From Lytechinus pictus (taxonomy: Eukaryota): DNA of 64,000 bases. Position numbers and translations under genes: made by a program. The notes beneath the pieces were generated by a model. That model did no database searches, was not told where the DNA came from, and was given only the letters and a program-made list of their open reading frames with translations. Location: contig NC_087251.1 of assembly GCF_037042905.1 (NCBI RefSeq), forward strand, positions 48,610,001 to 48,674,000, in the 5' to 3' direction. Numbering within the stretch: position 1 is the first letter of the stretch; every line of letters begins with the position of its first letter. This document shows positions 7,001-56,700 of this stretch, piece after piece.

Positions 7001-10000
7001 TAATGAGATTGTGTGAAGCCGCCATCTCAACTGTCACGGATGCATCTTCAATCACCGTGGCAACAGTATCAGAGGTCAAGAAGAATAAGTTGGCCAGGTA
7101 GACAGCTAGATGTAGAAGGGTGGCACTGGATTTATCAGAAGCAGTACCTAGGTATTATCATACAAATATTTCAAAACTTTAAAATCAAACAAATGACATG
7201 GAATTGCAGTTAACCTTAATTTTGAAAGGTCTTTAAAATTATCAACTTTTAGATAAATTTTCATCCATTCATAGATCTAGTTATAGGAAATTCTGATACT
7301 GTTTAAGCAGATCAAACAATGTGACGTAACGACATGCAAAGCGTAAAATATTGAGTAATGAGTATTCATTTGAGAATTTCAAGACTGTATATCAATATCA
7401 AGTATGTTTCGACAAACAAACATCAATTCAATCATTCATTGTTAAATTTTGACCCTGTAATGTTGTTGTTGTAAATTTGCTCTAAAGCTATTCAAATATT
7501 ATCATTATCATTATCCTGTAGGCCTACAGTCAGTACTAAAATATTTGTTCTTCATGAAATAAAAATAGGACACATGTACACATAAGACTGGAAATTTCTG
7601 TATGTTCTGAAACAAAGTATGATAATACTTGTCCCCGGCCCCAGGAGCAGGATATTTTCAAGGGAGTGGTAGGGAGACGGTGGGAGGGGGGGGGGGGGGC
7701 AAGACAAACCAAAGGGGACATTTTATCTCAATTATATCACGGAGATAATATTGAGGTACACAACTCAGATCTCTTTTTTATAACTCTTCTTTCTCCCTGA
7801 ACTTTTTTCTTCTTGTGCTTTTTTTTTTTTTTTTTTTTTTTAACTACCAGGTAATTTAAAAATCATGGAGGGGGGGGGGATGGTTACCCTGTGGTATTGG
7901 AATGGGTAGCAGTAATGCAGACAGGTCTAGTTGATATGGTAGATTATTTGACTAAATCCTGATGAAAACTGTAGAGTGAATGTTCTTCAACTAACAAAAA
8001 TATATTCAAATCAATTAATTGAAACACTTTTGTATTATCATCAATTCATGGAGGAAAAAATATGAAAAAAATGAAGAGAAAACATAAAATAAACATAACA
8101 AATAAGAGTTTACTAACAGACCTGTGACGATCAGAAACTCTCTTTCTGCTACCTTTCTTGCTGGTCCATAAGTAGCATAATCTCTTTCATCATCCTTCAA
8201 TGCATCATCAGTGCAAACAAGCCAGGAACCTGTTGTATTTATGAATAGATATTCACTTGCAATCTATTCGACAGCATTTCAGGGGGGGGGGGGCAAATTT
8301 AATTACAAGTTTAAAAACAAGTGCAAATGCAGTAAAACCTGTCTTTGTGGCCTCCTGTCTGTAACAAAAACCTGCTTGAGTGGCCATAAAAAGTATTTCC
8401 CCATTTCAGAGGATTATGTTTTAAAGAACCAGTCTATAAAGGCAACCTGTCTACTGTGGGCACTTTTTCTATTTCCCTCGGATGGCCAGGTTTGACCACA
8501 TAAAATGCCATTTATCTGTATTATTATTATTATTATTATTACTTATTATTTGTACTGTGCTTTTCCCATTAGGCCCAAAGCACTTACAATGAATTAATTA
8601 AATGTAATATTTTAAAAACTACAAAGTACGAAAGAGATGAGTTTTTAATGACTTTTTGAAAATTGCTAATGTTGGAGACTGTCTAATTATTAGTGGCAGG
8701 TCGTTCCAGGATTTTGAAGCCGACACCGTAAAAGTTCTGTCACCAGCTAATGTACGAGTTAATGAATATGTGAGGCAAAGGTGATCACTGGCCGACCTAA
8801 GTGCTCTTGTTGGTGTATACAGATTCAAGCAGTTACTTAAATACTGTATTGTAAAAAAACATGATTCAATTGTAGAATGGTTTATGATAGTTCATCATAT
8901 TTTGCTTAAGATTATTTAAATACTGTGTTCAATGTTATGTTTCCTTTTTCCTTATCTATAGCTGCATGACTTGTGGATTGTATCAACTTGAATACATGCA
9001 ATAAATACATTCTGTTTTCAAATGCAGTACAGAAAAGGTGTTCAAATTGTAATTTCAAGAAATATTTCATTAAAAAAATTGGATTCTATGCATAAAATGT
9101 TTCCTTCCTTAAAATGGGATGCTTAACTGACTTCCTAATGACCATGCATCACCTGCATCTGTTTTGCAAAAATGGGTAGCATTTTCTTTGACCATCATTC
9201 CGTGCTCCTCATCTGTGTTCAATAAAATACCATCAATCTGGAGAAAACAAACACATGTATAACATTTCTTAGGGGTCTTTTTATCATGATTTTTTTTTAA
9301 AGAAAATAAAAATCAACTTTCAAATATTTTCTATTCTATTATTATGGTTTTTTCATAATTCATTTTTTCTCCTTGGGAGGGGGAAGGGTAAGCTGAAATA
9401 TCAACTATTTAAATGACACTCAATAAATACTTCTACATAAAACAATAAACACTGAATAATGTAATGAATAATAAAATACTTTCAAGATTTCATATTTCAA
9501 AGTCTCTATTTTCTGTCCATTTCTAAATGATGTGCATGAATCAGACCTAGGGGTCTATGAACCAGGCAATTATACAATCTGGACTTGGTCTAGACAACTG
9601 ATTCATATCAATCTCAACTAAAGAAAAGAGGTGAAAATTGATTTCAATCTTTTCCAAAGTTTATGGCCCGAATTCACAAAGGTGGTTTTGAAAACCCATG
9701 GTTTAATCCATGGTTTATGCAGATAACATGTGTAAATTACGCTTAATTTAGCACGTATCGGGCACGTGTTTAAAAATGTCCAATGCTGATGTGCGCTTTT
9801 GTCAAATTGTGCCAAATTGACACCTGTTACAATGGTTAGATACGCTATTTTATTCATGAGTCCACTGTTTGAAGAGTGGACTCATTAATCAAAACAGTGG
9901 ACTCATGAATAAAATAGCGTGGATAACCACGGCAACAGGCGTCAATTCGGCGCACTGCAACAAAAAAACGAGCATCAGGATTGGACATTTGTTAATGTAC

Positions 10001-13000
10001 GCGGTAAAGAAGCGTAATTTATTCAGGAAATCTGCATAAACTATGGGTTCAACTGAGGGTTTTAAAAACAACCTTTTTGAATTCAGGCCAATATGTCAGG
10101 CCCTAGTAATACCCTAATCCTGAAGGAAAGTAATGCTCTAAACCAAATGAGCAAATATCAGTTAATACAGCTGGGTGGTATTTACCATCAAACCTTTCAC
10201 TACTTAAATCTTAGATTTCTACGACAACTCATCTGGTAGGTAATAACATGGTAGTATTTCAGCACCTTATAAAAGTACCTTTTAAAGTTAGACTTGCATA
10301 AGTTGACCTTGGCCCAAGCCAAAGCAATTTTTTTGACATTATTAAGCAATATGCTATAAACCTCTAACGTTGAATTTCTCCTTTGTAGTAGAACAGTTTT
10401 CTGTGTTCCCAAAATATTCAACTAAAGCAGAGTTACATGTATCTAACAATTTATACAAGTATTGTGAAACAAGGCCATTTACTTTTAGTGAACTTATGTT
10501 CCTCCAATTATAAGGAATATGACCAAGAGCTGTGATTGAAAATCTTTCCACATTTCTTGTAGTAAGCTCAGCTTTACCATTTGAAAGAGCCATCTAAAAA
10601 AAGTGAAGATAACAAAAAATAAATTTAACTTATATGGTGATTGGGAGAAAAAAATTAAGGAAAAATGTAAAAAGCATGTGATTGCATTGCCAATATTAAT
10701 GAGCAAAGGATAAACAGTTTTTAAATTCATAAACTTGTACACTGTAAAAGGGGAGGGGGAATCTCAATCATAGACTATTACATCCAACCCCTCTATGCAG
10801 TACTTTCCCAAATGATTGCCTCATGATTTGAATCTGATTTAAGTTCATATGAAAAGATGCATATTCTTGACTTTAGTTCACAGAAAAAATAAAGAGGATA
10901 AAATTTTGACTATTGTACATTATCAATTGTAGATTTATTTAGTGGTTTTGCACCAGCTAAGCTTATTAATTATGATGCTAATCAATGACACTACAAAAGA
11001 TTTTGATACTGAATAAATGCTGAGAGTCAAAAAGATATGCTGGACTTACTGACGAGTGCCATGATGGTGTGGTGTCTCAATGATTTTCTCTGTTCTATCA
11101 GCCCATCCATCCACCAACCTTACTGGTACTGGTTCTAAATGGAACCGACTGCTTTACCAACCTAACTCCTCTAAGACCTCTCCCTAGGGTGGGACTTCAT
11201 TATTTACTTGGTGTATCATCCCCCCCTCACTACCCATCCATCCACCCACCTTACTGGTACTGGTTCTAAATGGAACCGACTGCTGCACCACCCTAACTCC
11301 TCTAAGACCTCTCCCTAGGGTGGGACTTCATAATTTACTTGGTGTATCATCCCCCCCCCCCTCACTACCCATCCATCCACCAACCTTACTGGTACTGCTT
11401 CTAAATGGAACCGACTGCTGCACCACCCTAACTCCTCTAAGACCTCTCCCTAGGGTGGGACTTCATAATTTACTTGGTGTATCATCCCCCCCCCCCTCAC
11501 TACCCATCCATCCACCAACCTTACTGGTACTGCTTCTAAATGGAACCGACTGCTGCACCACCCTAACTCCTCTAAGACCTCTCCCTAGGGTGGGACTTCA
11601 TAATTTACTTGGTGTATCATCCCCCCCCCTCACTACCCATCCATCCACCAACCTTACTGGTACTGGTTCTAAATGGAACCGACTGCTGCACCACCCTAAC
11701 TCCTCTAAGACCTCTCCCTAGGGTGGGACTTCATAATTTACTTGGTGTATCATCCCCCCCCTCACTACCCATCCATCCACCAACCTTACTGGTACTGGTT
11801 CTAAATGGAACCGACTGCTGCACCACCCTAACTCCTCTAAGACCTCTCCCTAGGGTGGGACTTCATAATTTACTTGGTGTATCATCCCCCCCCCCCCTCA
11901 CTACCCATCCATCCACCAACCTTACTGGTACTGGTTCTAAATGGAACCGACTGCTGCACCACCCTAACTCCTCTAAGACCTCTCCCTAGGGTGGGACTTC
12001 ATAATTTACTTGGTGTATCATCCCCCCCCCCCTCACTACCCATCCATCCACCCACCTTACTGGTACTGGTTCTAAATGGAACCGACTGCTGCACCACCCT
12101 AACTCCTCTAAGACCTCTCCCTAGGGTGGGACTTCATAATTTACTTGGTGTATCATTCTCCCCCTCCCTCACTACCCATCCATCCACCAACCTTACTGGT
12201 ACTTGTTCTAAATGGTACCGACTGCTTTACCACCCTAACTCCTCTAAGACCTCTCCCTAGGGTGGGACTTCATTATTTACTTGGTGTATCATTCCCCCCC
12301 CCCCTCACTACCCATCCATCCACCAACCTTACTGGTACTTGTTCTAAATGGTACCGACTGCTTTACCACCCTAACTCCTCTAAGACCTCTCCCTAGGGTG
12401 GGACTTCATAATTTACTTGGTGTATCAATCCCCCCCCCCCTCTCACTACCCATCCATCCACCAACCTTACTGGTACTGGTTCTAAATGGAACCGACTGCT
12501 TTACCACCCTAACTCCTCTAAGACCTCTCCCTAGGGTGGGACTTCATAATTTACTTGGTGTATCATTCCCCCCCCCCCCCCTCACTACCCATCCATCCAC
12601 CAACCTTACTGGTACTGGTTCTAAATGGAACCGACTGCTTTACCACCCTAACTCCTCTAAGACCTCTCCCTAGGGTGGGACTTCATTATTTACTTGGTGT
12701 ATCAATCCCCCCCCCCCCTCTCACTACCCATCCATCCACCAACTTTACTGGTACTGGTTCTAAATGGAACCGACTGCTTTACCACCCTAACTCCTCTAAG
12801 ACCTCTCCCTAGGGTGGGAATTCATTATTTACTTGGTGTATCATTCCCCCCCCCTCACTACCCATCCATCCACCAACCTTACTGGTACTTCTTCTAAATG
12901 GAACCGACTGCTTTACCACCCTAACTCCTCTAAGACCTCTCCCTAGGGTGGGACTTCATAATTTACTTGGGGTATCATCCCCCCCTCACTACCCATCCAT

Positions 13001-16000
13001 CCACCCACCTTTATTGTACTGGTTCTAAATGGGACCAACTGCTGCACCACCCTCACTCCTCTCAGACCTTCCCCTAGGGCGGGGTTCACCACTGTCAGGG
13101 TCACCATCTCTGTCTCATCACCTTCTGATCCACTAGCAGACTGAGAATACTTGTTCTCCGAGGAAGAAGAGGTGCATTTTCCCTCCCCCTCTCCAACGTC
13201 ACATTGTAGATTGGCAGAGCGCAATAGTGATGGTGAGATTTTTGCATGTTCATTGGTAAAATGCCTGAGCTTGGGGTCATTTACAGCTCCTCCGTCATTC
13301 GTCTTCCTGTCAAGAAATTAGAGAAAAAAATAAAAGAGAAATACAACAGTGGTATGCCTGTTTCATGAGACCTTTTATTTTATATTAAATTTCAATAGCA
13401 TCAACCTTAACCAATCAAGTTTCAGTAGCTTGTAAATTGCATCAATTAAGAAGTTCCTAAAATTACTATGGCTAACTTTTCCATTTTAAAAAGACATTAA
13501 TTAGTATTGCAGTGATTTATTTTCAAAAGAAATACTAGTTGAACCATGATGTTTTTGCTGGATAATACTTAAATATGTGTTAATGATGAAAACAATTAAG
13601 ATCAAATTTTTCTGAATATGAAGCCTTAAAATGTTTTGATAAATGCTAATTACAATCTTATAGGAAAGATGAAAATCTCGAAGATCCTACCAAGTATCCC
13701 ACCACCAGTGTTCCTTTCCAGCCAGCTCGGTGTATGTTACATTGATTCCTTGCTCCTTCAATAGACGGTTCATACGCCTACAAAGAGAGAGAGACAGGAA
13801 GACCCATAGAGATAGAGATTGAGAGAAAAGAAAAAGAGAAAGATAAGGAATAAATGCATTGAATACACACAATGTTATAGTATTCATGAAAGAAAGTCGA
13901 TCTGGAGATCTAGTAAGGTATCATAGACAGAAGGATATGGTGTTGCACCTATATAAGGAACAGTCAAAGTTACAAAAAAGATCAATTAAAAGTTATAAAC
14001 GTGTTCCAGACACATAAACATGCATTTCTGCCTTATTCTTTAAATGTTTATGTTATAATAGAAATAAATCAAGAGTAAATGTCAATATAATATCAACATT
14101 CTTCAATGTGTGTGTTAAGGTGAGATGAATGGGAACCCAGCAGGGATAATTCCTTGAATACACAATGCTGGAAATGGCAACTTGAGCTAACTCCAGAGTA
14201 ATGACAAAAGTGCTTAATGACAAAAGTGCGCCTTAGAATAGATAAATGGCGCATTATAAATGCTTATTAATATAATGAATGTGTAACAATTAGAATATTC
14301 AGGGAGCATATATCATGATGAATGTATTAATTCTATTGTTTTTACCTTACAAAGAACGGATGGACAGTTCTGTCTATGGCACCAATCCTGGTCAGGACTG
14401 GTAAACCCTAAAAAAATAATGATAATGAAAAAGAAAATAATAACATTTAGTAACATATATATATAGTGCGAAACCGAGATTTATTGATGATTTATCATAA
14501 CTTAATCACAAACACAATAGACAAATGACCTACCATTGTAAAGCTTAGAACCTCCTCTTTCATCTGATATTACTTAGATTATTTCTCATTCACGCATGAG
14601 TGAGCAAAAACAATTTGAAGAAAGGATTGTCATATCAGGGAGGGAAGCTTAAGAAAATACCCTTCCTGGTATGACTATCACAACAACTCCATCAACAATA
14701 TAAAACAGAAAAGAACGGAAATAGAGACAATAATTCATAAAATTACCTTGACACTTCTTTTATTACGCGAAGGTGCCCCCATGCGCTAACAAGAATCGCA
14801 CATGTTCATGTACATGACATAATACAAAAAACTAATTTGGCGGGGGGTATCTGAATTTAAAAAAGAAAATCACATGCCTAAAAAGTTCAATATTAGCTCT
14901 TTAATTTGATACCTTTATCACAAAAAATGGTCAAGAAGTAAAAAAGTTACGTTCTCTCGAAACAATGCTTGTATTTCCATAGTTTCATCAAATAAACGTG
15001 TTTTCACCGGTTTCCCACAGAAGCTATCGCATGGTTAACAAAAGACTTCATGCATGGCTGATCGTCAACAAAACGGAGTGTCGAGTGAGTTTGAACGCAA
15101 GCCTGTAAAACCTCTTCATTTTATGAAATTATTGAAATTCAAGCCTTATTTCAAATAACCAGAACTTTCTTATTTCTTGACCATTTTCTGTAATTGAGGT
15201 ATCAAATTAAAGAGCAGATATTGAACTTTTTAGAAATGTGGTTTTCTTTTTGAAACCCAGATACAGCCCGCCAAATGACTTTTTGGTATCCCCTCTTCAA
15301 ATTGTTTTTGCTCACTAATGCGTGAATGAGAAATAACCTTAGTAATTTCAGATGAAAGAGGAGATTCTAAGCTTTACAATGGTAGGTCATTTGTCTATTG
15401 TATTTGTGATTAAGTTATGATAAATCATCGATAAATCTCGGTTTCGTTTTTTTTGTGGGACGCACTGTATATCGCTAATACTTTGTTTCTAAACCCTTTA
15501 CATAATTATTATTAGCCTGTTCATCAGTTCCTGGCATGCCCGCAAACAATGTATGCACTTTCTCCACTCCCTAGGGAGCATCCCAACAAGAGTTCCAATA
15601 CTCTATTGCTTGGCTTTGGACCCTTCCAGGTACCCATTTAACATCAATACAAACACTCTAATTCTAAAATTAACAAGGCGCAGATACCATTCAAACATCC
15701 TTGCCATTATTTAGACACATCAAAAAAAAAACACACACACACAAAAAGAAAAAGCTTCTGAGTACAGATGAGTCTTCGAAAATGCTTTAGAATCACCTTA
15801 ATACACTCACATGATGTCTTTGTCAAATGAATTGATAAAGGTACATTAGTGTAATTACCTGAAGGTTAGAAATATGTCTATCTGCATCATTTTCAGCAAT
15901 ACAGGCCTGGATGAGAGGAAATTGGAAAGAAGCAACACAAATATGATAAGGAGAAAAATATTAGTTTGTGATATACATGCAGTCATACATAATATCACTG

Positions 16001-19000
16001 AATTTCACATTACATGATCAACACAATCCTTATTCATGTTCATCAGTGGGGTTACAATTTATATTGCCTTTTTTACAAGCTCTGCTTTTCTTGGCAAGTC
16101 CCTCCGTTCAGATAATTTTATCTTCAATATTTGTTATGAAATGTCATAGAACTGTATGTATTATTTTGAGTATGTATTATTTTGAACATGTATTTACACT
16201 GTACTTGGATTATATCTTTTGTTTGAACGGAAATAAATAAATGAATAAATGAAATGAATATTACAACCATTGGCGAAACTATGACATAATTTTAATTTTC
16301 TCAGAGGGTTGGGGGTGAGGGAAATTTTATCTACATGTATTTTTCATGACAAAGTACAATTCGAATTGAACCTGTGTCAATATGGGTAATCTTTTGCAAT
16401 TATCAAGATCTATGTTGGACATCATAAGTGTAAATCGACTTTTGCCCCGTTTGGAACAAAACATTTTCAGTCAGTTCGTAATTACTTTTTAACCTGTGAG
16501 GTTTTTCATAACAAAAACACAAATAATAATAATAATAGGCATGTATAATAGCACCATCTATCTAAAAATAATCTATTCCAAGGCAAACTTTAATTGTTAC
16601 CCCAACTCTAGCTATAAAAGGAAATATTTCTGCTGGGTACATATCTGCCTCACTTGTGTTGAGTGCATCACAATGTGCTTAAATAAAAGCACACCATGAC
16701 TGGGCTTTGAACCCATGACCCTCTGTTAGGTAGACAAGGGTCCGCCCATCACTTGCCAGTGATCAAAATAATGGATAAATCATTGGACAGCATTGAAATC
16801 ACACAGTATTTACCTCTAATATGTGTTTGGTAGCTGAATCTGTGTGACTGGTACTGATGTCATGTCTACAAAGGAAAAGAACATGAAGTAGCAATGACCG
16901 TAAATCACAAGACACTTTCAATATACCACCATCGCCAATTGGCACCAAAAGTTACACATGAATTCAATAATACTGCAATTTGTATGTCACATTGAACATC
17001 AAATATAACAAAATAGCATGAAAACTGCAAGGATATCATACTGCTTACATACAGAGGCCAAGATCTTTTAAAGAATTCTATGGTTATATGGCGATTTTTT
17101 AATGGGGGGGCTTCAAATATACCTTACAAATTTAGTTTACGCACTGACATAGCAATCCACATAGCTCATTGCATAACACATTTAAAGCAAAATTGCCCCC
17201 CATAACTCAGATTCATCTAAATTTGAAGGAACAGAATAACTGATTGAACTGACCTGAAGAAAACATTGCTATCACCATACTCCTCTTTCTTGATCCATCC
17301 AGCGAGTGAGACCACGGCAAGGGCTCTGTCTGGGTAATGGGTGGCCAGGTGCCATGCCCCATGACCCCCCATGGAATGTCCCGCAAAGATGACCTGATCG
17401 GTCAGAGGCTTGTTGGGCATCCATGCAATCTCGGACATCATCTGGCGACATGACCAGAGAAAATGAAGAAGTGCTAGATAACAAGTACATTAAAATATAG
17501 GGACAGCGTTTTTCTGTTTACCTGTACATCAAAATGGAAAACCTGTTTTGGTTCGTTACTATCTAGTGAAAATCCATTTAATTACCTTTGCAAAACAGAA
17601 TTAATGTTTTTTGTTGTGTTCATTTTCTATGACAAAATGAAATTTCCATATTAGAACAAATTTGAAGGGAATTACAGGTTTTCAGAAAAGGAAAAGACTT
17701 ATTTTTTCAATGGAATACTTAGACACCAGTATGTGATTGTGAGATGACTTTCAATAATGTCTGTTAGTACTTCAAGGATCCCAAATGAATCAAGAACATC
17801 ACTAACAAAATGATGCATGACTCAAATAATCACACATAATTATGAGACAGTCATATGTTCATGAATTTACAGACATTGTTCCTAGTACTGGCTGCTTAAA
17901 CCACAAGAATTAAAACAACCATTACAAACCTGATGTAATCTTTGAAGTGCAGTCATTGATGTCAGGGTACCAGGACCTTCCCAGTTATGAGCCCCATGCC
18001 TGGATAAAAGCGAATCAATGAATAACATTTGACAACACTTACATGTAGGTCATGACAAAACTTTCAATCTTTGTTTCCCACTTTCTTCTTCTCATTCTTT
18101 TGTTTTATGTTTAAATTGTATCCAAGGTGACACATTATCAACTTAGTTTAATTATTATTCCCCTATAATCTTTAACGTGTGTAAATATGTTTTATCTATT
18201 ATTTATTATCATATGTTGTGTATATCAAGTACCATGGTTAGAAATCTGTCAATCTTTATTGTGTTATTGTGTAAACCAATGGCAATAAGACCATACTGAT
18301 AGTAGACTAATATGAGTTAAGCCCATGTGTTTATAATAATAATAAGCATTTATATAGCGCCATCTATCTAGAAATATTCTATTCCGAGGCGCGTTGTTAT
18401 TATTATTATTATTATTACCTTGGCTTTAGCTCAAGTTGCCTTTCAGCGCTCATGCATTCAAGGAATTAATCCTGCCGGGTACCCATTCACCTCACCTGGG
18501 TTGAGTGCAGCACAATGAGGATAAATTTCTTGCTGAAGGAAATTACGCCATGGCTGGGATTCAAACCCACGACCCTCTGTTTCAAAGTCAGAAGACTAAT
18601 CCACTTGGCCACAACGCTCCACAGACTATCTGGTACCAGACTATCTCAGAAAAACAGAAACTGCCTTTAGAATAAGTGAATAAAAACTGGCAGAGATTTA
18701 CTCATGGCTGGTAGGTGCCAAGACCCAAGCCCTCTAAAGACTAAGGGCAATTAGACCAAATTGATAATAGACCAAATTGGTTTTGCCAACTGTGTATGAG
18801 GTATTAGACTATCTGAATCGGAGAAAACTGCTTGTATACTATAAAAGTAATAAATACAAACTGGCAAATATATGCTCATACCTTGTGGGTGCTAAGACCC
18901 AAGCCCTCTCAAGACCAAAGAACCAGCTCTCATCTTCCATTCTCTTGTACCCATCAGCTTGGTTCTGGGCTTCAACACCCGTACCATGCAATGTCAACAA

Positions 19001-32700: not shown

Positions 32701-35700
32701 ACGTACAACTCCCTCATTACTTTAGTACTTATTTCACTTATATTCTCACTTTTATAGAGTCTATCACAAGGTGAGGTGTTCTCTTTATGAGAGGACAAGT
32801 ACAGAGGTTTCACAACATTATATCATTGATGAATCGTTTGTCATATGATTAGAATGAGCAAAAAGAGATGTTTTGGGGTATATTTTCAGTGTCCAAATGG
32901 GAGAGTTGTACGTGTGTGACATCACAGATCTTGGTCGCATTGCCAATGGGAGGATCTCCATAGCATTAGTGATCTCGACATTCAAATGCTCATAACTCTT
33001 TTATTACTAGTCCTATTTTACTCAAAGTTTTGTTGATCTTATTCTTTGATTTTTCTGCTTTCACAAAAGCTAACTTGCTCCAAGAGTTTCATTCTCCTTT
33101 AACCTAGTAACGGAGGTATATTTACATATTCAAATTATTACTCTATCTACTCAGGGACATGAGATATTTCAATTTTAATGAACACCCTGAAATTGCATGT
33201 CCTTTTGCGTAATGTCAGTTACCGACACATTTTTGCTTGCTGATGCGTTAAAAAATGTGGTTACATAGGAAAACTTGGTATCAGAGTATACAGCAAGGTT
33301 CACTTTATTAACTCTATCAGAAGCAAACTCCCATTATTTGTTGTTTTAGAGATACACACAATGAAAGGTGTGAAAACATTGTGCCGTGTAATGTCAGTTA
33401 CCGTGAAAATGCCCAAATGTGATGTTTAAGGTATAATTCATCTCCTGAAAACCCCAGGAGTTGTATATCTTTAAAAAAACCTTGTATCTCAACTTTTTAT
33501 TCAAATTTGGCCAAATGCACAGACCTCGTAACTCCATTTCCCGCCTTCTAAATTATATTTAGTGCATTTCAACCACTTCACATAATCGAAATGATTAACA
33601 AACATTGTCTAAGGTTCAAATAACATTGCCTACACACATGGTTTCTTGAAAGGAAGATTATTTTCTTCGTTTTACAAAAAATTTCGGGTTTTTTGAGATA
33701 CGAGGTTTTAACAGCCCATGAACGTTAGGTACGCTGGGTTGATAAAACCTTGTATCTTAATTTTTTGTGAAATCACTCTTTTTCAGGTTAAAATTACTCT
33801 TTTTTGTTCATGAATGTGAAGTGTAAGGTGTAATTTACCTTCTAATAGTCATAACAAAGAATGATGAGTTGCATATTCTTATAAAATATATCAAATTTCA
33901 TAATTTGTACAAAAACCTCCTATCTCATTTTATGATTTTTTTTCTTGTGCCAAAACCTCGTAACTCATTATATCCCCTTCACAATTATATATTGCACGTT
34001 CCAACCATCTCATATTAATTCAATTATCAAACATAGTATTCAGTTCAAATAACATAGAATATTCACATAATTTCTTAAAATAAGAAAGTTTTTTCGCTCT
34101 CCTGAAAATTTTGCTTTTTTGAGATACGAGGTTTTATCAGCCCATCGACGAATTGCGTTATCGTATCAAAGATCTGTGTGGTGGTGATATTAGAATATGA
34201 TATCAAAATTTGCTTTTTTTCAGAGGAATATATAAAAGTATGTACCCTCCCAGCACAAAATTGCAAAATTCCTTTTGGTGCTTAGGCATCGATAAATAAA
34301 TGCATGTAAAATTGTGTGTTTGCTTTTGAATGTCTGTGTTATATTTATGATTTAATATAAATGAAACATTCTAAACTGATCGTGATACAAAATATAATTG
34401 AAAATAAATAAAATTTTATGAAATTCATAAGAATATTTAAATTCTGAACAGATATTTTACAAAATGTTTTGGACTTCAAACTTCCCATTAATTTACGTTT
34501 CACATTCTCTCTACAGGTATAAACGGGTGAGAAACACAAGACTTCAAGGCTCTTCTGACAGTCACGACTCGTCCCATAAAAGTATCGCACTTGCGGAGCT
34601 GATCTCTTACATTGATGAAAGGAGGATGGTTGGGCCTAGTGTTCCTGTCTTCCGTCTTGTCGACCTTGTCTCTGTGTACACAGAGTGCCTGGTGGAACTG
34701 AGTCCGGACAATACAGAGATAAAGGTCAATTCAACCCGTCTGAAAGAGCGGCTCCTATTGCATTGTCCATATCTGAAAGCTGTGAGGCAAGGAAGAGATG
34801 TTCTCCTGACATACGACACTGCAATCGGAGATGCCATCCAAATGACATGCTTTGATGATGATGATTCTGAAGCGCTACAACTGGCAAATGCAGCTTTAAT
34901 TATCAGGAAGCAACTTTTCTCCCAAGGCAGAAAATTCAATGGATCCTTGATAAATGATTCAGCTGAAAACACAGTTCCTAGCAGACAGCTGGCACTGGTC
35001 AATATGATCCTTGATGGTCCGAGTATCAAGTCGCAGACGCGAAAAGATGGTTTGTCGACACGAGCAGCTCGAACCATTAGTGAACTCATAATATTCAATA
35101 GCATACAGGGCAATCGTGTGAAGAAAGATGCAGTTCGACATAACGCTGACAGAGAGGTCCCTGTACCAACTTACATAGGCCTGAAAGTTCATGCGCAGAC
35201 ACGAAATCGTGAATTGATTGACAGCCTCCACAAGCATGGATTGGCAATATCATATGATCGGGTTCTCAAAATATCATCATCTATCGCAAATGGCATCATC
35301 AATCGCTTTGAGGAGAATGGAGTAGTCTGCCCGCCTCAGTTGAAGAAAGATCTTTTCACGACAGGACAGGTTGACAACATTGATCATAATCCCAGCGCAA
35401 CGACAGCAGTTGGCTCTTTTCATGGAACTGCCCATTCCTTGTGTCAGCACCCCACTGAGAACAATCAAGGAACAGATGCTGACCCGATAGGTCTCGTTGA
35501 CATGGAGACAGGCAAGCGAATCCATCCTCTTCCTCTGGCATACACAAACATCTTGCCTGCACCATCAATGCCGAAGGAATACAAAGCACCAGTGACGTAC
35601 GGACCAATGCGACCAGATAGGGACAAGTTTGATGAAGACCGCATTAATGAGAAAAAATGGCTTGAGAAGCAGTTATCTTTGATGGAAGAAGGAGACCTTT

Positions 35701-38700
35701 CGGTTGGTGATTTTGTGTCATGGGCTGCATACCATGCAAATATGCAGATGCAACATACATGTAAGCTGCCGACTACAATTGCACTGATGCCATTATTTCG
35801 TGAAGTATCACACTCATTTGCAACAATAATGCATTGCATGTATACCAACCAACAAGCAACACACTTGTTAAACCCAGGACAAACACCAGTATTGACGATG
35901 GACCAACCTTTGTATGCCCTTGGGAAACAGATCCAGTGGCGATTCCCAGAGCGCTATGGTGAAGACAAGTATGTGATGATGTTAGGCCCTCTTCATATCG
36001 AAATGGCTGTCTTGAAAATGCTTGGTGATTTGCTGGATATGACTGGTTGGAGTAATGCTATCGCCCAAGCAGGAGTTGCTACACAAGGGACAAGGGATAG
36101 TTTCATTCATGCATCACATGTAGCACGGACAAGGAGAGCCCATCAAATTACTGCTTCTTCACTGTACATTCTCCAAAGGCAATCTTTCAGGAAGGAAAAA
36201 GAATCAGCCATCCATCAGTATCCTGTTGCCGAGGAGAGCTTCACAGAATGGTGTGAGCAGCGAAGCAAGTTCTACCCTATGTTTCGATTTTGGAGCACAG
36301 TGCTTGATCTAGAACTGACTTTGTTGGCATTTGTGCGATCGATTCGGACATCAAATTTTGAGTTGTACGCGCAGACATTGTCTCAACTAGCTCCATGGTT
36401 CTTTGCGCTAGACCATATCCACTATGCCCGTTGGATCCCTGTACACATTAAGGACATGGCAAGACTTGCCAAGCAGTGCCCAGATGTACATGAACACTTC
36501 ATGCGTGGTGCATTCACATCAAACAAAACTGGGAATCTATACTCTGCAATTGGTTTGGATCACGCGCATGAGCAGGTGAATGCTCAAGTCAAGGGTAACG
36601 GAGGAGCCATCGGTCTGACAGAAGATCCAGGTGCCCTACGACGATGGATGGTGGCAGGGCCGCATCTAGCCATGGTCATTGAAGAGTATGAGAGCAGTGC
36701 TGACAAGTCACCTGTGGATACTAATCCAAAGCATCATGAACAGAGTCCATCGGCGCAAAAATCCTTTGCTGATGATGTGCGATCCCTTGTTGCTGTAATG
36801 GATGAGTTGGGGAATCCATTCATGGATCGTTCAAAGGAATTGGTAACAATAGATTCACAAGAAGTCATGCCGCAGAAAGTTGTGGAGGGTATGGAGCAAG
36901 TTCACACCCTGGGAGAGAAGAAGTATGAAACCTTCATCGAGGAACGCCTCTTGAAAAACGAAACACCCATCAGTGCACCCATCAAACGAAATTCACTTCC
37001 ACTTTTCCGCAATCGAAAGCATGTGGGTCCATCCAAGGAAAAGCAGACAATAATAGATCTGAAGAGCGACTGCGCATTGTTCTCACGACTATACATTGCC
37101 AGTCAGACAAGAGGAGGTGACATCAAAGAGTTCTTCAAGCATGAAAACCAAAAATATCCCCCATCACTTTCTTCGTCTGGAACACTTAAACAAGGAACCA
37201 AATCAGATCTGGTTAGATTGCTAGAGACTCTCCTCAATACTCCGTCAGCTGTCACAAACACTCCATCTACAGATGTGACAATCCTTGATGGTGCGGCGCT
37301 TGTGCATCTGATTCCAGTAAAGGAATAAAAACCTTTGCTGAATATGCACAGGAAGTATTCATCCCGCACATCTTGTTTGAACTTGGAAAGGTCAAGCGGG
37401 TTGATCTTGTTTGGGACGTGTATCTCAAGAACAGTTTAAAGCTTTCAACAAGAGCAAACAGAGGTACAGGCACAAGGAAGAGGGTGTCTGGTAATGTGAA
37501 GCTTCCAGGGAACTGGAAAAACTTCTTGCGGAATGATAACAATAAGGATGAACTCTTCCAATTCCTAGGACAACAATGTGTTTCCAAGGACACAGGTGAC
37601 AAGGTCATCATTTCCACCCTACTGGACTCTGTTGTCACCTCTAGAGAGGATTACACCACAGATGGACTTCAACCATGCTCGCATGAAGAAGCAGATACGC
37701 GTATCCTTCTTCATGTCAAAGATGCTATGAACTGCGGGTTCAAGAGAGCAATGATACGAACTGTTGATACTGATGTTGTTGTGCTCGCTCTTGCCCATTT
37801 CCAGGACTTGCCAGACATCGAGCAACTCTGGATAGCTTTTGGAACTGGCAAGGATTTCAGGTACATTCCAATCCATGAGATTGCCCATGCAATATCCCCA
37901 GAGATGGCCAAAGGATTGCTTTTCTTTCACGCATTCACTGGATGTGATGTAACATCCTACTTCGCCAACCACGGGAAGAAATCTGCATGGAAAACTTTGC
38001 TTGCATGGCCAGATATCACCAACACGTTTGTTGCACTGTCACGGCCGTGTACAGCACAACTACCAGATGAAGTTGTTCTAGAACTTGAACGATTCGTTGT
38101 CCTGATGTACTGCCGGACCAGTGATGAGACTCGTGTCAATGAAGCCAGAATGGAACTTTTCGCAAAAATGAAAAGAAACATTGAGAACATCCCTCCCACA
38201 AGAGCTGTCTTAGAACAACACATCAAGCGATCAGCTTACCAGTCAGGCCATGTGTGGGGACAATCACTTGAAATACAACCTCAAATTCCTGATGTCACTG
38301 AATGGGGGTGGGAATCGACCGAATCAGATGGTTTTGTTCCTAAGTGGTCCACCTTGCCCATCGCCGAAGCAGCTTGTCTTGAATTAATTTCCTGTAACTG
38401 CATCAAATCTTGCAAGGGAAACTGCAAGTGCTTCAAGACAAAGCTGGAATGTACTGCACTTTGCAAATGTGGAGGGGTATGTTATAAGTAGGAGATCAGA
38501 ATAGATAAATGTGGACAGGACATCCTTATCCCTTATTTTTCATCTATACCACAAAAATCTCGACAAACATCTCATCAACAGTGCAGTTAATTGTTCGCTG
38601 ATTATTGGATCCTCTGCAAGACACTCCAAGGTTAGCCAACATCCTTACCTGGGAATCCAACTGTCTAACACTCTTATTTTGGGTATGTCAATGCCTAATG

Positions 38701-41700
38701 GTTGCACTAGCGCGGACTACATGGTGGCCATCTGAGAATCCTCTGATTTTGACACAACCAACATTTTTCAAATCACCAAAATTGATATATAAGTTTGAAC
38801 TGTGTGCTTGTCTTCGTGCAAATATAGGTATTAACAGGTTTGCAAAAAGACTATATTGTGGCTATATGGTGAAATGAGCTCATTTGAAATATGTTCAAAG
38901 GTATCATGATCATTGGCATATCGTATATTGTCACATATATTGTGTAATAGCAAGGCGGCCATCTTGAAATCAAATACCGCAGATGCAAGTTCTGACATTG
39001 GCAATGTTTTTTTAGACATCGAAAACACTTGAACTCCTAAATATGGACAGAGGGTATGTTGATTTCTGCAGCCATATTTGAATTCAAAATGGCGGCCCCA
39101 GAGGGTGTTATTTCTTAATTTCAATTTTGCAGACTTCTGATATAGATTATGATAATAAGTAATAACTTTCTGGACAAAAAAACACAGGAATAGTCGTTTA
39201 GATTTAACTCCAAGGTGAAATAGCAAAAAAAAAAAAAACCTGCACAAAACGAGCGCAAAAGTAATTTTATTTTGTCGGCCATCTTGGAATTCAATATGGC
39301 GGACCTCTGACATAGATTTTAACACTGCCATCATGTTCCTAGACACTGAAAACATGGGTAAAGACGTTTGAATCTCAGTCCTAGGTGCAATAGAACAGGA
39401 GATATGGCCAAAAGTATTATGATTTTGGCGGCCATATTGGAATTCAAAATGGCGGCCCCCAGAGGGCGCTTTTTTTTTTTTGATCCATTTTTTTTTACAA
39501 TCCTCATGTATCATAGATACCATGTGCAAAATGTCATGCTTTCTTCAAAAAGTGAACGATTTTGGTGCTTAGCCGCTCTAGGGGGGTTTATGCATTTGCA
39601 GTTTTTATCAATTATCATATTTCACACTCACCAGAATTCATCCCTTCTATATACATCAGCTGCAATAAATACTCCATCCAAAAAGAAGGTATGCACACCT
39701 GTTAATCAAGAAGGAAGAGGAAGAAAATAACCTTTTTAATTATCAACCTTCTAATACACTGTATATATCAAAATATTGCTTAAACATCAACCACAACAAC
39801 AATAATGCTTAAACAGCAAAATATTGCTTAAACAACAATAATGCTTAAACAACAAAATATTGCTTAAACAGCAACCACAACAACAATAATGATAACGATA
39901 AAGCAGAAGGCTGTTTTTGTCATGTTTATTTTTTTTTATAGGCCAAGTGCCTGAATTTTTTTGTTGTTGTAAACAAACATACATGTATATGTTTTCTTAT
40001 CTTACACTATTTTGTATGTTAGACATGTTATTTTATATGCCAACGTCATCTGAACTTTTATATGTGATCCATTATATCATGAATGTTTTGTTATGTATAT
40101 TTTCAATTCAATTCAAATTCAATTTATTCTTGATAATAATAAAAACATCATCAAATTGTACATTCGTATATAGAAATGTCATTACAAGAAAAGGAGGGCA
40201 ACAAAAAGTTTACACTTGAAAATAAGAAGCCTCCAAAGAATACAGTAATTAATATATGTACACATCAGATGAAGAGTGGGGGGGAAACGAAACATGCTCA
40301 TTCACACACAGACACATCCACCGAGAAACATCGTCATCATCACACACAAAAGCACACCCGAACATCCATCATCTTGGTTCATTCATTAACAAAAATAATA
40401 CATATATAAATGAGGTGAGTTTGAATTCAAATTAGGAATAGGTACTAATAATGATCTTTTTGAGTTTGCATTTAAACGAAGAAACAGTTGAACATGAAAA
40501 AAGGCATACATTGAGATTATTCCAGATTCGTGGTCCGGTAAACTTAAAAGAGTTCAGAATTAAGGTTGAAGCTGTTTTAGGGTAATGAAAGCTATTAGCA
40601 GAGCGAGTATTGTATCGGTGAAAGTCGTAGTTATATTGAAAAAGATTGATGATATTAATAGGAGCATATCTATATATATCTAACTGCCTGCATAAGTGTA
40701 GCAATCTTAAATTTATGAATATCGTAGACTGTCATTGTTTTTAATCTAAAAAATAATGGCCCTGATGGTGTCAGATATGGAGAATTGGTGCAAATGCGTA
40801 GTGCTTTTTTCTGGAGTTTGTGGATACAATCCAATTTAGTTATTCCAACACTGGCCCATGTTATGTTGCAATATTGAATATAAGGTAGAATCAAAGAGTT
40901 ATATAGCATAATTAACTTCTTTTCAGGTAATATGGATTTCAATTTACACAGTATTCCTACACTTTTGGATATTTTGTTACAAATATGTATACGATGATTA
41001 GTAAAAGTTAATTTATCATCTAAAATTATACCTAGAAATTTGACTTTTTTAGTTACATTCAGAATTGTCGAACCTAGTTTTAATTTAACAGCAGATATAT
41101 CATACGAAATGTTTGGTTTACAAAAATACATAACATTGGTTTTATCATAATTTATTATTAATTTATTGGCTCCAAACCAGTCTGTCACTTTGCATAACTC
41201 TTTCATAGTTTCATTTAAAAGTTCATTAAAATTACTATGTGAAGAAATTATATTAGTGTCATCTGCGAAAAGTATAAAGCGAAAAAAAGAAGATACATAA
41301 CATAAATCATTGACATACAAAATGAATAAAAGTGGCCCCAATATTGAACCTTGCGGTACTCCGCATTGAACTTTAGAATAAGAAGATTGACAGTTATTAA
41401 AAAAGGTGAATTGATATCTATTGTTTAAGTAACTAAAGAACCAATCCCATGCTATGCCCCGAATACCAAAATGTTTTAATTTATACAGAAGAATTTTATG
41501 ATCAATAACGTCGAATGCTTTGCTGAAATCAAGGAAAATGCCAAAAGAGTGTAGATTATTTTCAAAGGAGTTAATAAGTACATTATGTAAATCAATATTA
41601 AAGAGCATGTTCACATGAGTGTCCTGGTCTGAAACCATATTGGGCATTATTTAGTAATTTGTTTTTGTTTAAATAACAAAGTGTTCTATTGTATACAATC

Positions 41701-44700
41701 TTTTCCAATATTTTCGAAAAACAAGGTAGTAAAGTTATTGGTCTGTAATTCGAAAAGAGATGTTTATCACCTTTTTTGTGTACAGGGATTTTTTACCTAT
41801 CTTCATTTTGTTAGGGACTTTACCGGAACAAAAAGACAAGTTTATGACATGAACTAGTGGATCAGCTATAAGTTGGATAACCTTTTTGACTAAATTAGTA
41901 CAAACATCATCAAAACCTGTACTATCAGTACTTTTGAGCTTAGTTACAATATTTATTATTTCATTAGCATTTGTTGGATTTAAATATAACGATTTACTAC
42001 AAGGATTCTTTAAATATGAAGTAAATTTAGAAATGACTGATTTGTCCAACTTTGAACGAGCTAATAAAGCAATATTAGAAAAATATATTAAACTCTTCAA
42101 CAATGTCTTCATCTCTATCTATTTTATTACCATCTTTTATGAAAAATGAGGGGAAATCAGACTTTTTGCCTTTGCCAATTAAGTTGTTTAAAATTTTCCA
42201 TACCTTAGAAAGATTATTTTTATTTGCTTGTAATAATTCGCAATAATATTGCTTACGGGCAAGCTTTAGTGTATTATTTAATATATTACGATATCTTTTT
42301 AATTTAGTATGCGATTGAACATCACATTTAATACAAAATATCTTATAGAGTCTATTTTTCTTATTAATACATCTTAGAATAGAAGGAGATACCCAAGGTT
42401 TCCTTGGAACATATTCTTTTTACGACATTTCTTTTGACACTTTTTATCTACAGCTTCATTGAATTTATACAAGAATCGTTCATAAGCAAAGTCAACATTG
42501 TCAAATAATAATACATCAGTCAAACTAATCTCAGAGAGATCTTTTTTCAAAGCATTGATAGTTGTAGAGTTTATACATTTCATAGTATAATTTGACTGAT
42601 GTGATCTAAAAGCATTCTCAATGCGTTTATTTTCAGTCATAGAAAAAACGGGTAAATGGTCAGTGATGTCATTATATAGGATACCAGCTTTAACATTTTT
42701 ATCACACACATTTGTAAAAATATTATCAATGAGAGTCATCGATGAGTTATTGATTCGAGTGGGTCTATTGATTAGGGGGCGAAAAGAGTTATCGTAAACA
42801 ATATTTACAAAGTCATTTATATAATTTACAGTTAAAGAATTCATTAAATTAATGTTAAAGTCTCCCATTATATAGGTTTCTTTACTTTCATTTGTTATTG
42901 TACGTAAACATTCGTTCAGAGCTATATTGAAATCATAAATGTTTATATGTGGGTCTCTATATACGACAGCAACTATGATATTTTTATGTTTAGGTATACT
43001 TATCTCAATAAAGAGAGATTCACAAAGGTTGAGAGATAAATGAAGATCTTGTCTCTCAATAACATTGAAAGTATTTATATGTATAAACATCGCAACACCG
43101 CCACCTTTGCTTTTCAATCTATCACTATGAAAAAGAGTATAATTATTAATATGAAATAACGATAAGGGTGTTCGCTCATGTATCCAAGTCTCGCTAAATC
43201 CGTACACAGAAAATTGACAATTTAGTTCGCATATGAAATCATGAATTGTATCAAAATTCTTATACATGCTTCTTGAATTGAAATGGATTAAACTAAGATC
43301 AAATTCAGTTGTCAATCTCGTTTCTTGACTTGCTTTAAATTCTTCAGGTAGCCAATACTTATTATTGACATCAAATATATCGGCATTCCGGTCAGGATCG
43401 ATAGTATCAATTAGATCATCAAAATCACTGTTTTCATCATACAAAATACTATCATCAATCAAGGTATTTTCATTGTGGAATAGATTACCAAACTCACAAT
43501 CAGAGATATTACTATAGAAACAGGAAATCACACACTTTCATCACCACTCACTAAAATGTAAAAATAACAAAAACAATATAGCCTAGGTTACTACTCGTTA
43601 TAAAAAAGGAAACATCTAAGATTATATAGAAATCGAAATATCATTAAAAAGCAAATGCCAGAGGGAAATATGGTGTGTAGTTATTTATGGTTTATACTTT
43701 TCATTGATTGTTTATAATTTGTCCAGATTATAAACAATCAATGAAAAGTATGATGAAAAGGATCAATAAAACATGAATTACAAAAAAAAAACAATAATGA
43801 TAGCATTGAAATTATGAATTAAATGTGCATTTCCTGCATGGAAATTCTTTTGAAGTGAAATAAGGATTTTTTTCATATTTTCATCAAATGTGGGGGTATT
43901 ATGGTCTAATGGTCAAGACTCTCATCTTTCAATCTGAAGGACGTGGGATTGATTCAAAGCCATGGCGTGTTTTCCTTCAGCAAAAAATTTACCCACATTG
44001 TGCTGCACTCAACCCAGGTGAGGTAAATGGGTACTGGCAGGAAGTAATCCCTAAAAAAGCTGTGTTCACCAGAATTGGTAGACTAGCTTAGCCGGGGTAA
44101 CGTAGGAGTGCCTTGAGCACCTAGCTAGATGGATACATGCGCAATATAATGTAAATGCTATATTATATTATCAAATCCAGCTTTACTTGTCGATGCTAAT
44201 GATAAATTCAATAGCTTCCTCTTTCTCCTACTTTCTAAGAACACAGATAAAAAATGATAAAGTTATTATCACAATTACTGAGGTGTATCATAATGATAAA
44301 TACTTGATATGAAAATGTGTTTTGCGCCTGGGGGGGGGGGACCACTTCCATTGACAAATGGATACCATGCATGACCAAAAAAACACGTAAAAAGGATCTC
44401 TTTTTCAAGATAGGGCACGTTACGTACGTAACATAATATGGGTGTCAAAAACACTAAAATAATAAAATAAGGGTATATATTTCGCTAGGAAACTACATGT
44501 ATACGGTCCAATTTGCGAGGGTATAAAGACTAAAATATCTTTTTGCCCCAACACTATGTGTTTAAGGTCCGATTTGAGCGAGGTGTTTGGGTGGTACTAG
44601 AACCAACGAAAGTCAAGGTAAAGCTGACGTCCGTGATCACGATCGTGATTTGTACTTGTTTATGGGGTCAGTTCAGGGAATACTTGTCAAGGGTACTGTT

Positions 44701-53700: not shown

Positions 53701-56700
53701 TGCTTGATTTTTTGACACTCACTGTCAGTTTCTATTGCTGATATTCATCATCATGATCATATAGGTCTAACTTGTCTCTAAAGTAAAATTAAATTCGTTT
53801 TTCTAAATTAGAAAGAGAGATTGTTAGGTGACAATTCAGACCAACTTTGGTATACAAAAATCAAAATCTTTAATTTTGAGCATATTTTTGTGTTGGCCCT
53901 GTATTGGTGGAAAGTTAAAGGAGAATGAAACTCTTGGAGCAAGTTAGCTTTTGTGAAAGCAGAAAAATAAAAAAATAAGATCAACAAAAGTTTGAGTAAA
54001 ATAGGACTAGCAATAAAAGAGTTATGAGCATTTGAATGTCGAGATCACTAATGCTATGGAGATCCTCCCATTGGCAATGCGACCAAGATCTGTGATGTCA
54101 CACACGTACAACTCTCCCATTTGGACACTGAAAATATACCCCAAAACATTTCTTTTTGCTCATTCTAATCATATGACAAACGATTCATCAATGATATAAT
54201 GTTGTGAAACCTCTGTACTTGTCATCTCATAAAGAGAACACCTCACCTTGTGATAGACTCTTTAAAAGTGAGAATATAAGTGAAATAAGTACTAAAGTAA
54301 TGAGGGAGTTGTATGTGTGTGATATCACAGATCTTGGTTGCATTGCCGATGGGAGGATCTACATGGCACTAGTGATCTCAATATTCGAATGCTCATAACT
54401 TTCTTATTATTCATTCAATCTTCCTCAAACTTTCAAAAATGTGTTCCTTTGATTTTTCTCTTTGATATGGATTCAGCTGGTTTCAAGGGTTTCATTCTCC
54501 TTTAAGTATTTACTTTCCACAAATACAGCCTTCACTGTACAGGGCCCACACAAATTTTAAAATACTGTATGCTCAAAATTTAAGTTTTTGAGTACTCTGG
54601 TAGTGGTAAAACAAAAATCCCTAAATTAATAGTGATAAAAAATCATAATTGTATGGAACAGAGTATTTTTCATAACAAAATATATATTTCAAAGACTTTT
54701 TAAATATTGCTTGTTGCATGAATCTACCCATCTACAAAAGTACAACACTACTTATATTATAAGTTACAACTCACAACAGTCACTGAAAATAATAACTGGT
54801 GCAGTATACAGTGCGTCCCAGAAAAAACGAAACCGAGACTTAGCGATGATTTATCATAACTTAATCATAAATAAAATAGACAAATGACCTACCAATGTAA
54901 AGCTTAGAATCTCCTCTTTCATCTGGTATTACTTAGATTATTCCTCATTCACGCATGAGTAAGCAAAAACAATTCGAAGAAAGGATGCCAAAAACTCATT
55001 TGGCGGGGGGTATCTGAATTTCAAAAAGAAAATCACATGACTAAAAAGTTCAATATCTGCTCTTTTCTTTGATACCTTAACCACAGAAAATGGTCAAGAA
55101 GTAAAAAAGTTATGATCCCTCGAAACAATGCTTGTTTTTCCATAATTTCATTAAATAAACGTGTTTTCACCGGTTTCCCACAGAAGCTATCGCACGGAAC
55201 AAAAGACTTAATGCATGGTTGATCGTCAACAAAACGGAGTGTCGAGTGAGTTTGGACCCTTGCCTGTAAATCCTCTTCATTTTATGAAATTATTGAAATT
55301 CAAGCCTTATTTCAAATAACCAGAACTTTGTTATTTCTTAACCATTTTTTGTAATTGAGGTATCAAATTAAAGAGCAGATATTGAACTTTTTAAAAATGT
55401 GGTTTTCTTTTGAAAACCCAGATACGGCCCGCTAAGTGACTTTTTGGTATCCCCTTTTCAAATTGTTTTTGCTCACTCATGCGTGAAAGAGAAATAAACT
55501 AAGTAGTTTCAGATGAAAGAGGAGATTCTAAGCTTTAAAATGGTAGGTCATTTGTCTATTGTATTTGTGATTAAGTTATGATAAATCATCAATAAATCTC
55601 GGTTTAGTTTTTTCTGGGACGCACTGTATAACCCTGCCCTTGAAGCACTACAGGTAGAATGTGGTGAAAGACCTTTACAACTAAGAAGAGAACTGTCTGT
55701 TGACAAATACATGTTTTATCTTTTAACAAACAGAGATAGTCATCATCCTACTTTAGAAATTATTGAACCTTCCTGGTATATTGATCAATTTACTTGGAAA
55801 TCAGGTCGTGGACCCTTTGTAGCCGGAGCATGTAAGCCAAATGAAGAGATCCAAATTGAACAACTAAACCAAAGAATATTACGAGAACCTTTTTGGTCAT
55901 ATGGAATACCTAATATATCTTACTATATCCATTTAGATTATCAATAAACAACGTAACTTGGTACAAGATATGAAAAACTGTGTCTCAGAAAGGATACATA
56001 CAAAGATGGAAAGGTTACTTAAAGATCTACACTGATGGATCAAAACAAGAAGACAAGAGAACCGGCTCTGCTTTTTATATACCAGAACTGGATATTAAAA
56101 GATTCAATAGATTAAATTCTGGAAGTATAATGAGAGCCGAATTAACAGCAATGGTAATGGCACTTGATTGGCTAGGAGATAACAGAGGTATGTCCGTGGT
56201 CATTTTTACAGATTTGTTGTCTGCTCTTCAAGCACTTGAAAGCAATCGTATACAAAACAATCTTATTGTTGATATCTTGTATAAAATCAAAGTTTTACAA
56301 TCATCAGATATTTATGTCAATTTTGAATGGATACCATCCCATTGTGGTATTCACGGGAACGATGTGGCAGACCTTTTAGCAAAAAAAGGAGCATCAAAAG
56401 AACAAGTTGAAGTAAACATTCCATATATCAAAGAGGAATGGAAAACCCACATGTCTTTGATTTAGAAAGAAATCTGGCAGGCTCTATGGGTATCCTCATC
56501 TAAAGGAAGACATTTATTTAGCATCCAACCCAACGTGGCAGATACAATTAGTTATCAAGGTCTCATTCGGTTTGAAGCGACTATGATACACCGTTTAAGA
56601 CTCGGAATATGTAAATTGAATTATTATCTGTATAAATGTAATCAACATGAAAATGGTCTATGTTCCCATTGTCAGGTTCCTGAGACAATAGAAGATTTTT

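Follow-up and report, generated by a model that had tools for sequence, protein, structure and literature searches.

A tandem array of an exon-intron junction, probably inert, in an intron of an alpha/beta-hydrolase gene of the sea urchin Lytechinus pictus

The stretch of DNA analysed here, referred to below as the window, is 64,000 nucleotides of the Lytechinus pictus genome (NCBI RefSeq assembly GCF_037042905.1, contig NC_087251.1, positions 48,610,001 to 48,674,000 of the forward strand), and all coordinates are counted from its first letter. Its minus strand carries a gene of 27 coding exons, running from 58205 to 3930 as defined by tblastn with the L. pictus protein P0001. One intron of this gene, at 10594..13008, is largely filled by a tandem array in which the exon-intron junction that opens the intron is repeated a further 14 times, each copy with its own look-alike of the splice donor. 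In this report we describe the gene and the array, examine what the copies could do to splicing, and argue that the array is quite probably a tolerated, inert intronic minisatellite of the "mirage" or F7-intron-7 type.

Homology identifies the host gene as a conserved Lytechinus alpha/beta-hydrolase of the ARB_06907-like type. The exon with the catalytic-serine motif GHSMGG matches esterase and alpha/beta-hydrolase Pfam families and retrieves 118 proteins, at the head of which stand 1,000-residue "uncharacterized secreted protein ARB_06907-like" entries from sea urchins, starfish, hemichordates, amphioxus and molluscs. A simple splice model connects the coding exons through 26 GT..AG introns, one junction (26413/21172) fitting poorly. 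The authentic exon from which the array derives lies at 13009..13306 on the minus strand and corresponds to residues 660-758 of P0001 by tblastn and the splice model; its last residues are ...TSTIK, a phase-0 donor comes directly after 13009, and the exon is backed by a piece of an RNA contig at 13009-13305 and by an RNA joint at 13305|13690. The intron that follows on the same strand (10594..13008, 2415 nt) holds the entire derived array and is excised as one piece according to the splice model, the RNA contig and public gene models. The next coding exon, 10483..10593 on the minus strand (MALSNGKAEL...SSLK), is supported by the RNA contig, tblastn and the splice model, and is preceded by an acceptor with 17 pyrimidines in 20 positions. 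An earlier note, made from the sequence without database searches, had called the copied exon exon 22; that the tail of a coding exon was copied is confirmed, but the exon is the 21st of the 27 defined by tblastn. The discrepancy could stem from a micro-exon that was missed or from a first exon that is non-coding. The same note had placed the array just downstream of the exons completing the catalytic triad. This is plausible, an Asp in GAIDRTV and a His in GKEH being aligned in addition to GHSMGG, but the alignment to esterase 3wyd is weak and its second aligned stretch is not significant alone. In the current public annotation the gene is broken, at a 13-kb transposon-laden intron, into P0120 (263 aa) and P0121 (777 aa), both of them RefSeq models of L. 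pictus, whereas it is unsplit in the older P0001 (1035 aa) and in P0119 from L. variegatus (1036 aa). Within exons both P0120 and P0121 are identical to the window, and both fall in the P0001 cluster.

Tandem Repeats Finder, run over the whole window, places the array on the minus strand at 11102-13083, with a period of 135, 14.7 copies, 95% matches, 1% indels and a score of 3418; no other tandem repeat in the window approaches this strength, which is far above what chance would give. When its minus strand is cut at a recurrent CCTAGGG, the array resolves into 15 units. Unit 0, the progenitor (12948..13078), consists of the final 70 nt of the exon and the initial 61 nt of the intron, and the authentic exon-intron boundary, AAG|GTGGGT at 13009|13008, thus lies inside the first unit, where it is set by orthologue alignment, the RNA contig and gene models. 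The 14 derived units (11102..12947, minus strand) comprise 13 full ones of 131-139 bp and a terminal partial one of 87 nt, which stops at 11102 with unique intron sequence beyond, and occupy 1846 of the 2415 bases of the intron. A run of 7-14 G is present in every full derived unit and is almost the sole source of variation in unit length. The units stand head to tail and are of minisatellite size (10 to ~160 bp), and the splice signal is reiterated downstream, with GT at the junction position in 14 of 14 copies; the array has each defining feature of junction-spanning minisatellites of the "mirage"/F7-IVS7 type that we tested. The earlier description of a junction amplified 14-fold in units of about 135 bp was correct in all material points, being upheld by Tandem Repeats Finder as well as by the unit alignment. 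We considered the unit as a piece of a dispersed repeat or transposon and rejected this, since a search of the organism's own 812-Mb assembly, in which counts are lower bounds, found it at no second locus. Homopolymer runs of 7-15 G or C are frequent across the window (29 of them in 64 kb), which makes the G run of the units unremarkable for this genome. Six of the 13 full derived units fit the strict G-quadruplex pattern (G3+N1-7) on the sense strand, and such motifs are only a possible contributor to instability of the array.

The direction of copying can be read from the exon part of the units. The peptide encoded by the exon tail, LGEGLRGV(R/K)VVQQLVPFRTSTIK followed by M, is found in both Lytechinus species, in a close version in S. 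purpuratus and Diadema, and in recognisable form in starfish, hemichordate and amphioxus; tblastn with the orthologue P0001 also matches it in all 14 derived copies, at 64-74% identity. Ten differences from unit 0 are common to all 14 derived units, including three non-conservative codon changes (E>R, L>S and I>S). Since the tail peptide is conserved across deuterostomes and the derived states are common to all copies, it is the exon that is ancestral and the array that descends from it, in agreement with the earlier proposal that the array is gene-derived and stems from the exon/intron junction. Moreover, because the 10 differences are common to the 14 units, the array goes back to a single copy whose drift preceded the amplification. 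Two subfamilies can be told apart, one with GGTAAAGCAG in units 1-6 and in the terminal unit 14, the other with GGTGCAGCAG, as in the exon, in units 7-13, which are 98.5-100% identical to unit 9. Identity to unit 9 is lower for unit 1 (94.7%), the terminal unit 14 (96.6%) and unit 0 (91.6%). Concerted evolution of the interior units, with the edges excluded, is apparent from these values, and a near-identical interior with diverged edge units presents the usual signature of what would be unequal exchange. Between unit 0 and unit 9, 9 of 70 positions differ in the exon part and 2 of 54-61 in the intron part (Fisher p = 0.06 for 2/61; not significant), a hint that the intron part of unit 0 may still be homogenised with the array while selection guards the exon part. 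We picture a tandem duplication across the conserved exon/intron boundary that would have placed a second exon tail and donor inside the intron. This intronic copy would then have drifted, gaining the 10 fixed differences, and the drifted copy would have been amplified to 14 by unequal exchange or replication slippage; homogenisation would be ongoing among the interior copies, with the edge copies lagging.

How good are the copies as splice sites? Eleven of the 14 derived units read AAG|GTTGGT at the junction, one reads AAA|GTTGGT (12744), and two keep the authentic 9-mer AAG|GTGGGT, namely unit 7 (12050..12058) and, from the motif scan, unit 13 (11244..11252), both on the minus strand and with their last "exon" bases at 12056 and 11250. 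A CCCTAG|GG lies exactly 65 nt upstream of the donor in 14 of 14 units. The earlier note had recorded the prevalence of AAG|GTTGGT, the two faithful copies near 12050 and 11245 and a possible acceptor in each unit delimiting a 65-nt frameshifting cryptic exon, all of which we recover. As a crude proxy for donor strength we used the energy of the duplex with the 5' end of U1 small nuclear RNA. By this proxy, the authentic donor has -11.0 kcal/mol, the fifth best among the 26 donors of the gene, while 11 copies have -7.6 kcal/mol, which is mid-range for the gene, two (that of unit 7 among them) have -11.0 kcal/mol, and one has -4.1 kcal/mol. The candidate acceptors of the units are weak, with 10-11 pyrimidines and only 4-5 T in the 20 nt before NAG, compared with 12-18 pyrimidines in 20 for 24 of the gene's 26 real acceptors, and they sit 32-34 nt downstream of the G run. 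Every alternative that we translated meets an early stop: inclusion of one 65-nt unit shifts the frame and stops in the next exon, and two cassettes, or extension to the first decoy, stop earlier still. These premature stops lie upstream of later exon junctions, as five further coding exons, by the tblastn count, are still to come. Any use of a decoy would be unproductive, because every translated alternative stops early. No RNA structure masking the decoys was found in unit 0 and two derived units, whose folding z-scores (-0.12, +1.29 and +1.60) are no better than those of shuffles, and a search of 9000-14000 for known RNA families found none at the Rfam gathering score.

What is actually spliced was examined over 9000-14000, at 90% likeness, in three raw RNA-seq runs carrying the species label (X21-X23), of each of which ~6% was read, giving low depth, and in a contig set (X1) that is only guessed to be RNA and may come from the assembly's own sample. 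An X1 contig of 977 nt (depth 8.9, 0 other letters) covers 9151-9237, 10483-10593, 13009-13305 and 13690-13779; because its positions are consecutive, it joins 13009 directly to 10593. The flanking joints occur in raw reads, 9237|10483 in 5, 2 and 1 and 13305|13690 in 6, 7 and 3 reads of X21, X22 and X23, respectively. Independently of the RNA runs, the public models P0121 and P0001 from L. pictus and P0119 from L. variegatus all read ...STIK|MALSNG... across the intron. In the gene's orientation, the depth of X21-X23 over the array (11 bins, 11171-13007) is 0 apart from 0.02 in one bin under this shallow sampling, the flanking exon bins having 1.4-6.6; in the opposite orientation it reaches 0.13 in one bin. 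No joint into or out of the array is among the 15 of 39 joints listed. At this sampling, inclusion of a unit as a poison exon was not detected, array depth being about 0 with no such joint listed, and the X1 contig, the array depth and the gene models agree, albeit at low power, on use of the outermost authentic site with the copies intronic. A colinear X1 contig at 12038-12203 (166 nt, 1 other letter) runs unspliced across the decoy donors 12192 and 12056 and the candidate acceptor 12120, as pre-mRNA or DNA carry-over would give, and a second colinear X1 contig lies inside the intron at 10918-11085. The X1 joint, the gene models and the near-zero array depth lend no support to the earlier suggestion that the array modulates splicing through competing donors, poison exons and copy-number control. 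The earlier note would have taken a lone 13009-10593 junction in deep RNA-seq as the mark of an inert array; the X1 contig and the models recover this junction alone, but at such depth rare use could hide.

Similar arrays are known in human genes. Borensztajn et al. 2006 (PMC1557585) describes minisatellites whose first unit spans an exon-intron boundary in human F7, IFI6, CBS, LMNB2 and PDGF, with a 37-bp unit in 5-9 copies in F7 intron 7, 25 pseudo-sites in IFI6/6-16 intron 2, 15-20 repeats in CBS intron 13, a 100-bp unit in 10-15 copies in LMNB2, and an 81-bp unit in 16-18 copies in PDGF intron 4. In F7, LMNB2 and PDGF, the same paper reports, the authentic site is the only one used. The urchin array resembles these cases in having its first unit across the boundary and the donor reiterated in the intron, and in its similar copy number (10-25). 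The mRNA, like those of F7, LMNB2 and PDGF, shows use of the most upstream site alone, and the core of the authentic donor is the same hexamer as in F7, gugggu. It differs from F7 in the size of the unit, 135 bp with 70 nt of exon as against 4 nt of exon in F7, and in that 12 of its 14 copies depart from the authentic donor, which in F7 is matched exactly by the copies; unlike all of the human cases, its host is an echinoderm.

A second set of precedents is found in amphioxus, where such repeats go by the name of mirages. The original "mirage" paper is said to be that of Canestro et al. from 2002. Ebner et al. 2010 (PMC3087553) describes amphioxus mirage minisatellites in Adh3 (units of 10-72 bp) and in the globins BflGb6 and BflGb9 (150-160 bp), with regular splicing undisturbed, concerted evolution of the units, and allelic and somatic length instability; in Adh3 and the globins it gives the authentic splice site as the only one used. 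The urchin array shares with these mirages an exon/intron boundary duplicated in tandem, a host among the invertebrate deuterostomes, a similar unit size, normal splicing despite splice signals retained in the copies, and interior units that evolve in concert to the exclusion of the boundary units. However, it has 14 copies compared with 3-6 in the BflGb6 mirage, and unlike in the amphioxus mirages the duplication is donor-side. The array also has something in common with poison cassette exons, those coupled to nonsense-mediated decay, in that inclusion of a unit would lead to an early stop. Unlike poison exons, its units show no inclusion in X1 and X21-X23, at their low depth, have weak acceptors, and are young, homogenising sequences and not conserved elements.

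With these precedents in mind, we consider it quite probable that the urchin array is a tolerated and inert minisatellite of this type. The spliceosome takes the first, authentic donor at 13009 together with the acceptor at 10593, as is seen for one RNA contig and in the public gene models; with the authentic donor used, all copies are inside the excised intron, and the mRNA is therefore unchanged. Judging from the sequence and the published cases, the first donor would win since it is the most upstream and adjoins a defined exon, since its predicted U1 pairing is better than that of 12 of the 14 copies, and since the candidate acceptors of the units are weak. Several points weigh against this interpretation. 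The 10593|13009 joint is absent among the 15 of 39 joints listed, its RNA support being the one X1 contig, and power is low given the fraction of each raw run that was read and the depth of the exons. The length of the array is backed by the assembly alone. Two decoys equal the authentic donor and 11 are mid-range relative to the gene's real donors, while the gene itself uses a +3T donor, CAG|GTTTGT at 17930, so that the decoys are weakened but not dead. Decoy products with early stops could be made and then destroyed, leaving little trace, and two of the human genes, IFI6 and CBS, do make use of their first two pseudo-sites as well (PMC1557585).

On a rival reading, that of the earlier note, the array would be a copy-number-dependent splicing dial, in which decoys and 65-nt pseudo-exons are occasionally used, the resulting transcripts are degraded, and longer alleles yield lower output. 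We regard this as unlikely. It can draw on two full-strength and 11 mid-strength decoy donors, on the CCCTAG|GG that precedes each of the 14 decoy donors by 65 nt, on the early stop in every alternative tested, on the IFI6 and CBS pseudo-sites, and on the splicing-associated intronic tandem repeats catalogued in humans (PMC10078293 and an abstract on ABCA7). It is countered by the lack of gene-orientation depth on the array in X21-X23 beyond 0.02 in one bin, by the lack of any array joint among the 15 of 39 listed, by the X1 contig that spans three candidate sites unspliced, by acceptors that are weak and 32-34 nt downstream of a G run, by gene models with the authentic junction only, and by the finding that the identical pseudo-sites of F7 do not compete with the upstream site (PMC1557585). 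Because the available RNA and annotation evidence gives it no support and most precedents are silent, a regulatory role is disfavoured. Slightly more doubtful again is the bolder proposal of a heritable, length-variable brake on the hydrolase gene, in which donors backed by G runs would capture U1 and occasionally splicing, the early-stop products would decay and so escape ordinary RNA-seq, and output would fall with copy number, with, as its broader version, exon-intron borders as preferred sites of tandem duplication in this urchin genome. We think it very improbable that the duplicated junction is genuine but its 14-copy length, or the length of its G runs, reflects error, collapse or expansion in long-read assembly. 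G runs of 7-14 are error-prone homopolymers, array length rests on the assembly itself, and one amphioxus mirage was mis-assembled in a draft genome (PMC3087553); yet the substitutions in the units are ordered and subfamily-specific and unlike noise, the unit is in no alternative haplotig, and an X1 contig, possibly from the same sample, reproduces 166 nt across the boundary of units 6 and 7 with 1 other letter. Least probable of all, in our view, is that the array is best understood as raw material for a change of gene structure, through future exon recruitment or a new intron position ("mirage" intron gain), with no present function. Such a model has been proposed for amphioxus globins (PMC3087553), and the exon-derived parts of 14 of 14 units are open in the exon frame and LGRGLRGVRVVQQSVPFRTSTSK-like; but a unit of 65 nt throws translation out of frame and into stops further on, X1 and X21-X23 show no sign of recruitment, and it is a statement on the future and not on a present mechanism.

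The array is an echinoderm member of a kind of repeat already in print for human and amphioxus. A literature search on sea-urchin exon-intron-boundary minisatellites found no sea-urchin report of this kind, returning abalone only. Our description extends the kind from humans and amphioxus to echinoderms. If inert, the array is a large and clean natural example, with 70 nt of exon, 14 copies and two decoys equal to the true site, of the splicing machinery choosing the first among many look-alike donors, and it is a potential natural test bed for the choice of 5' splice site in an invertebrate with injectable embryos. It also calls for caution in gene prediction, because all 14 copies score exon-like in tblastn.

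Whether duplications favour junctions in this gene was assessed in two ways. An unbiased self-comparison of the window yields eight local direct duplications, seven of them in the gene, and two of these seven include a donor junction. By our own estimate, which multiplies the 52 junctions by a copy length of 66-250 nt and divides by 54 kb, ~1 such case is expected by chance, and we rejected junction-targeted duplication for this window; because ~1 junction-bearing duplication is expected by chance, no junction preference can be claimed from it. Comparison of the gene's 52 junctions with the window by blast likewise brings out, at 18610-18925 on the minus strand, a second and older junction echo. 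Here the 14th coding exon has had its final 37 nt copied together with the donor at 18882 and the start of the intron; the copy lies about 174 nt downstream at ~78-80% identity, and the GT of its donor has become CC.

A few other features of the window deserve mention. In the intron that follows exon 10483..10593, the segment 9501-10168 reaches RNA depths of 58-97 in the two bins at its centre, in both orientations and in three runs. Its X1 contig depth is very high, loose ends are numerous and joints to the opposite strand occur; the most likely explanation is an inverted-repeat element of high copy number, with transcription from many loci. The 13-kb intron at which the annotation is broken, between 39632 and 26471, contains on the plus strand two long overlapping open frames of 965 and 400 aa (34431-38491), for neither of which a Pfam match was found and which probably encode the protein of a mobile element of no assigned class. 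Remains of retroelements lie in introns at 40670-43537 on the minus strand, with a reverse-transcriptase frame (PF00078, E 3.8e-23) and a 387-aa frame upstream of it, and at 55974-56465 on the plus strand, with a separate RNase H frame (PF00075, E 9.9e-14). Finally, upstream of the first coding exon, at 61140-61664, there is an unrelated tandem repeat that has the same 135-bp period, in 3.9 copies with 95% matches, and stays open in one frame on each strand.

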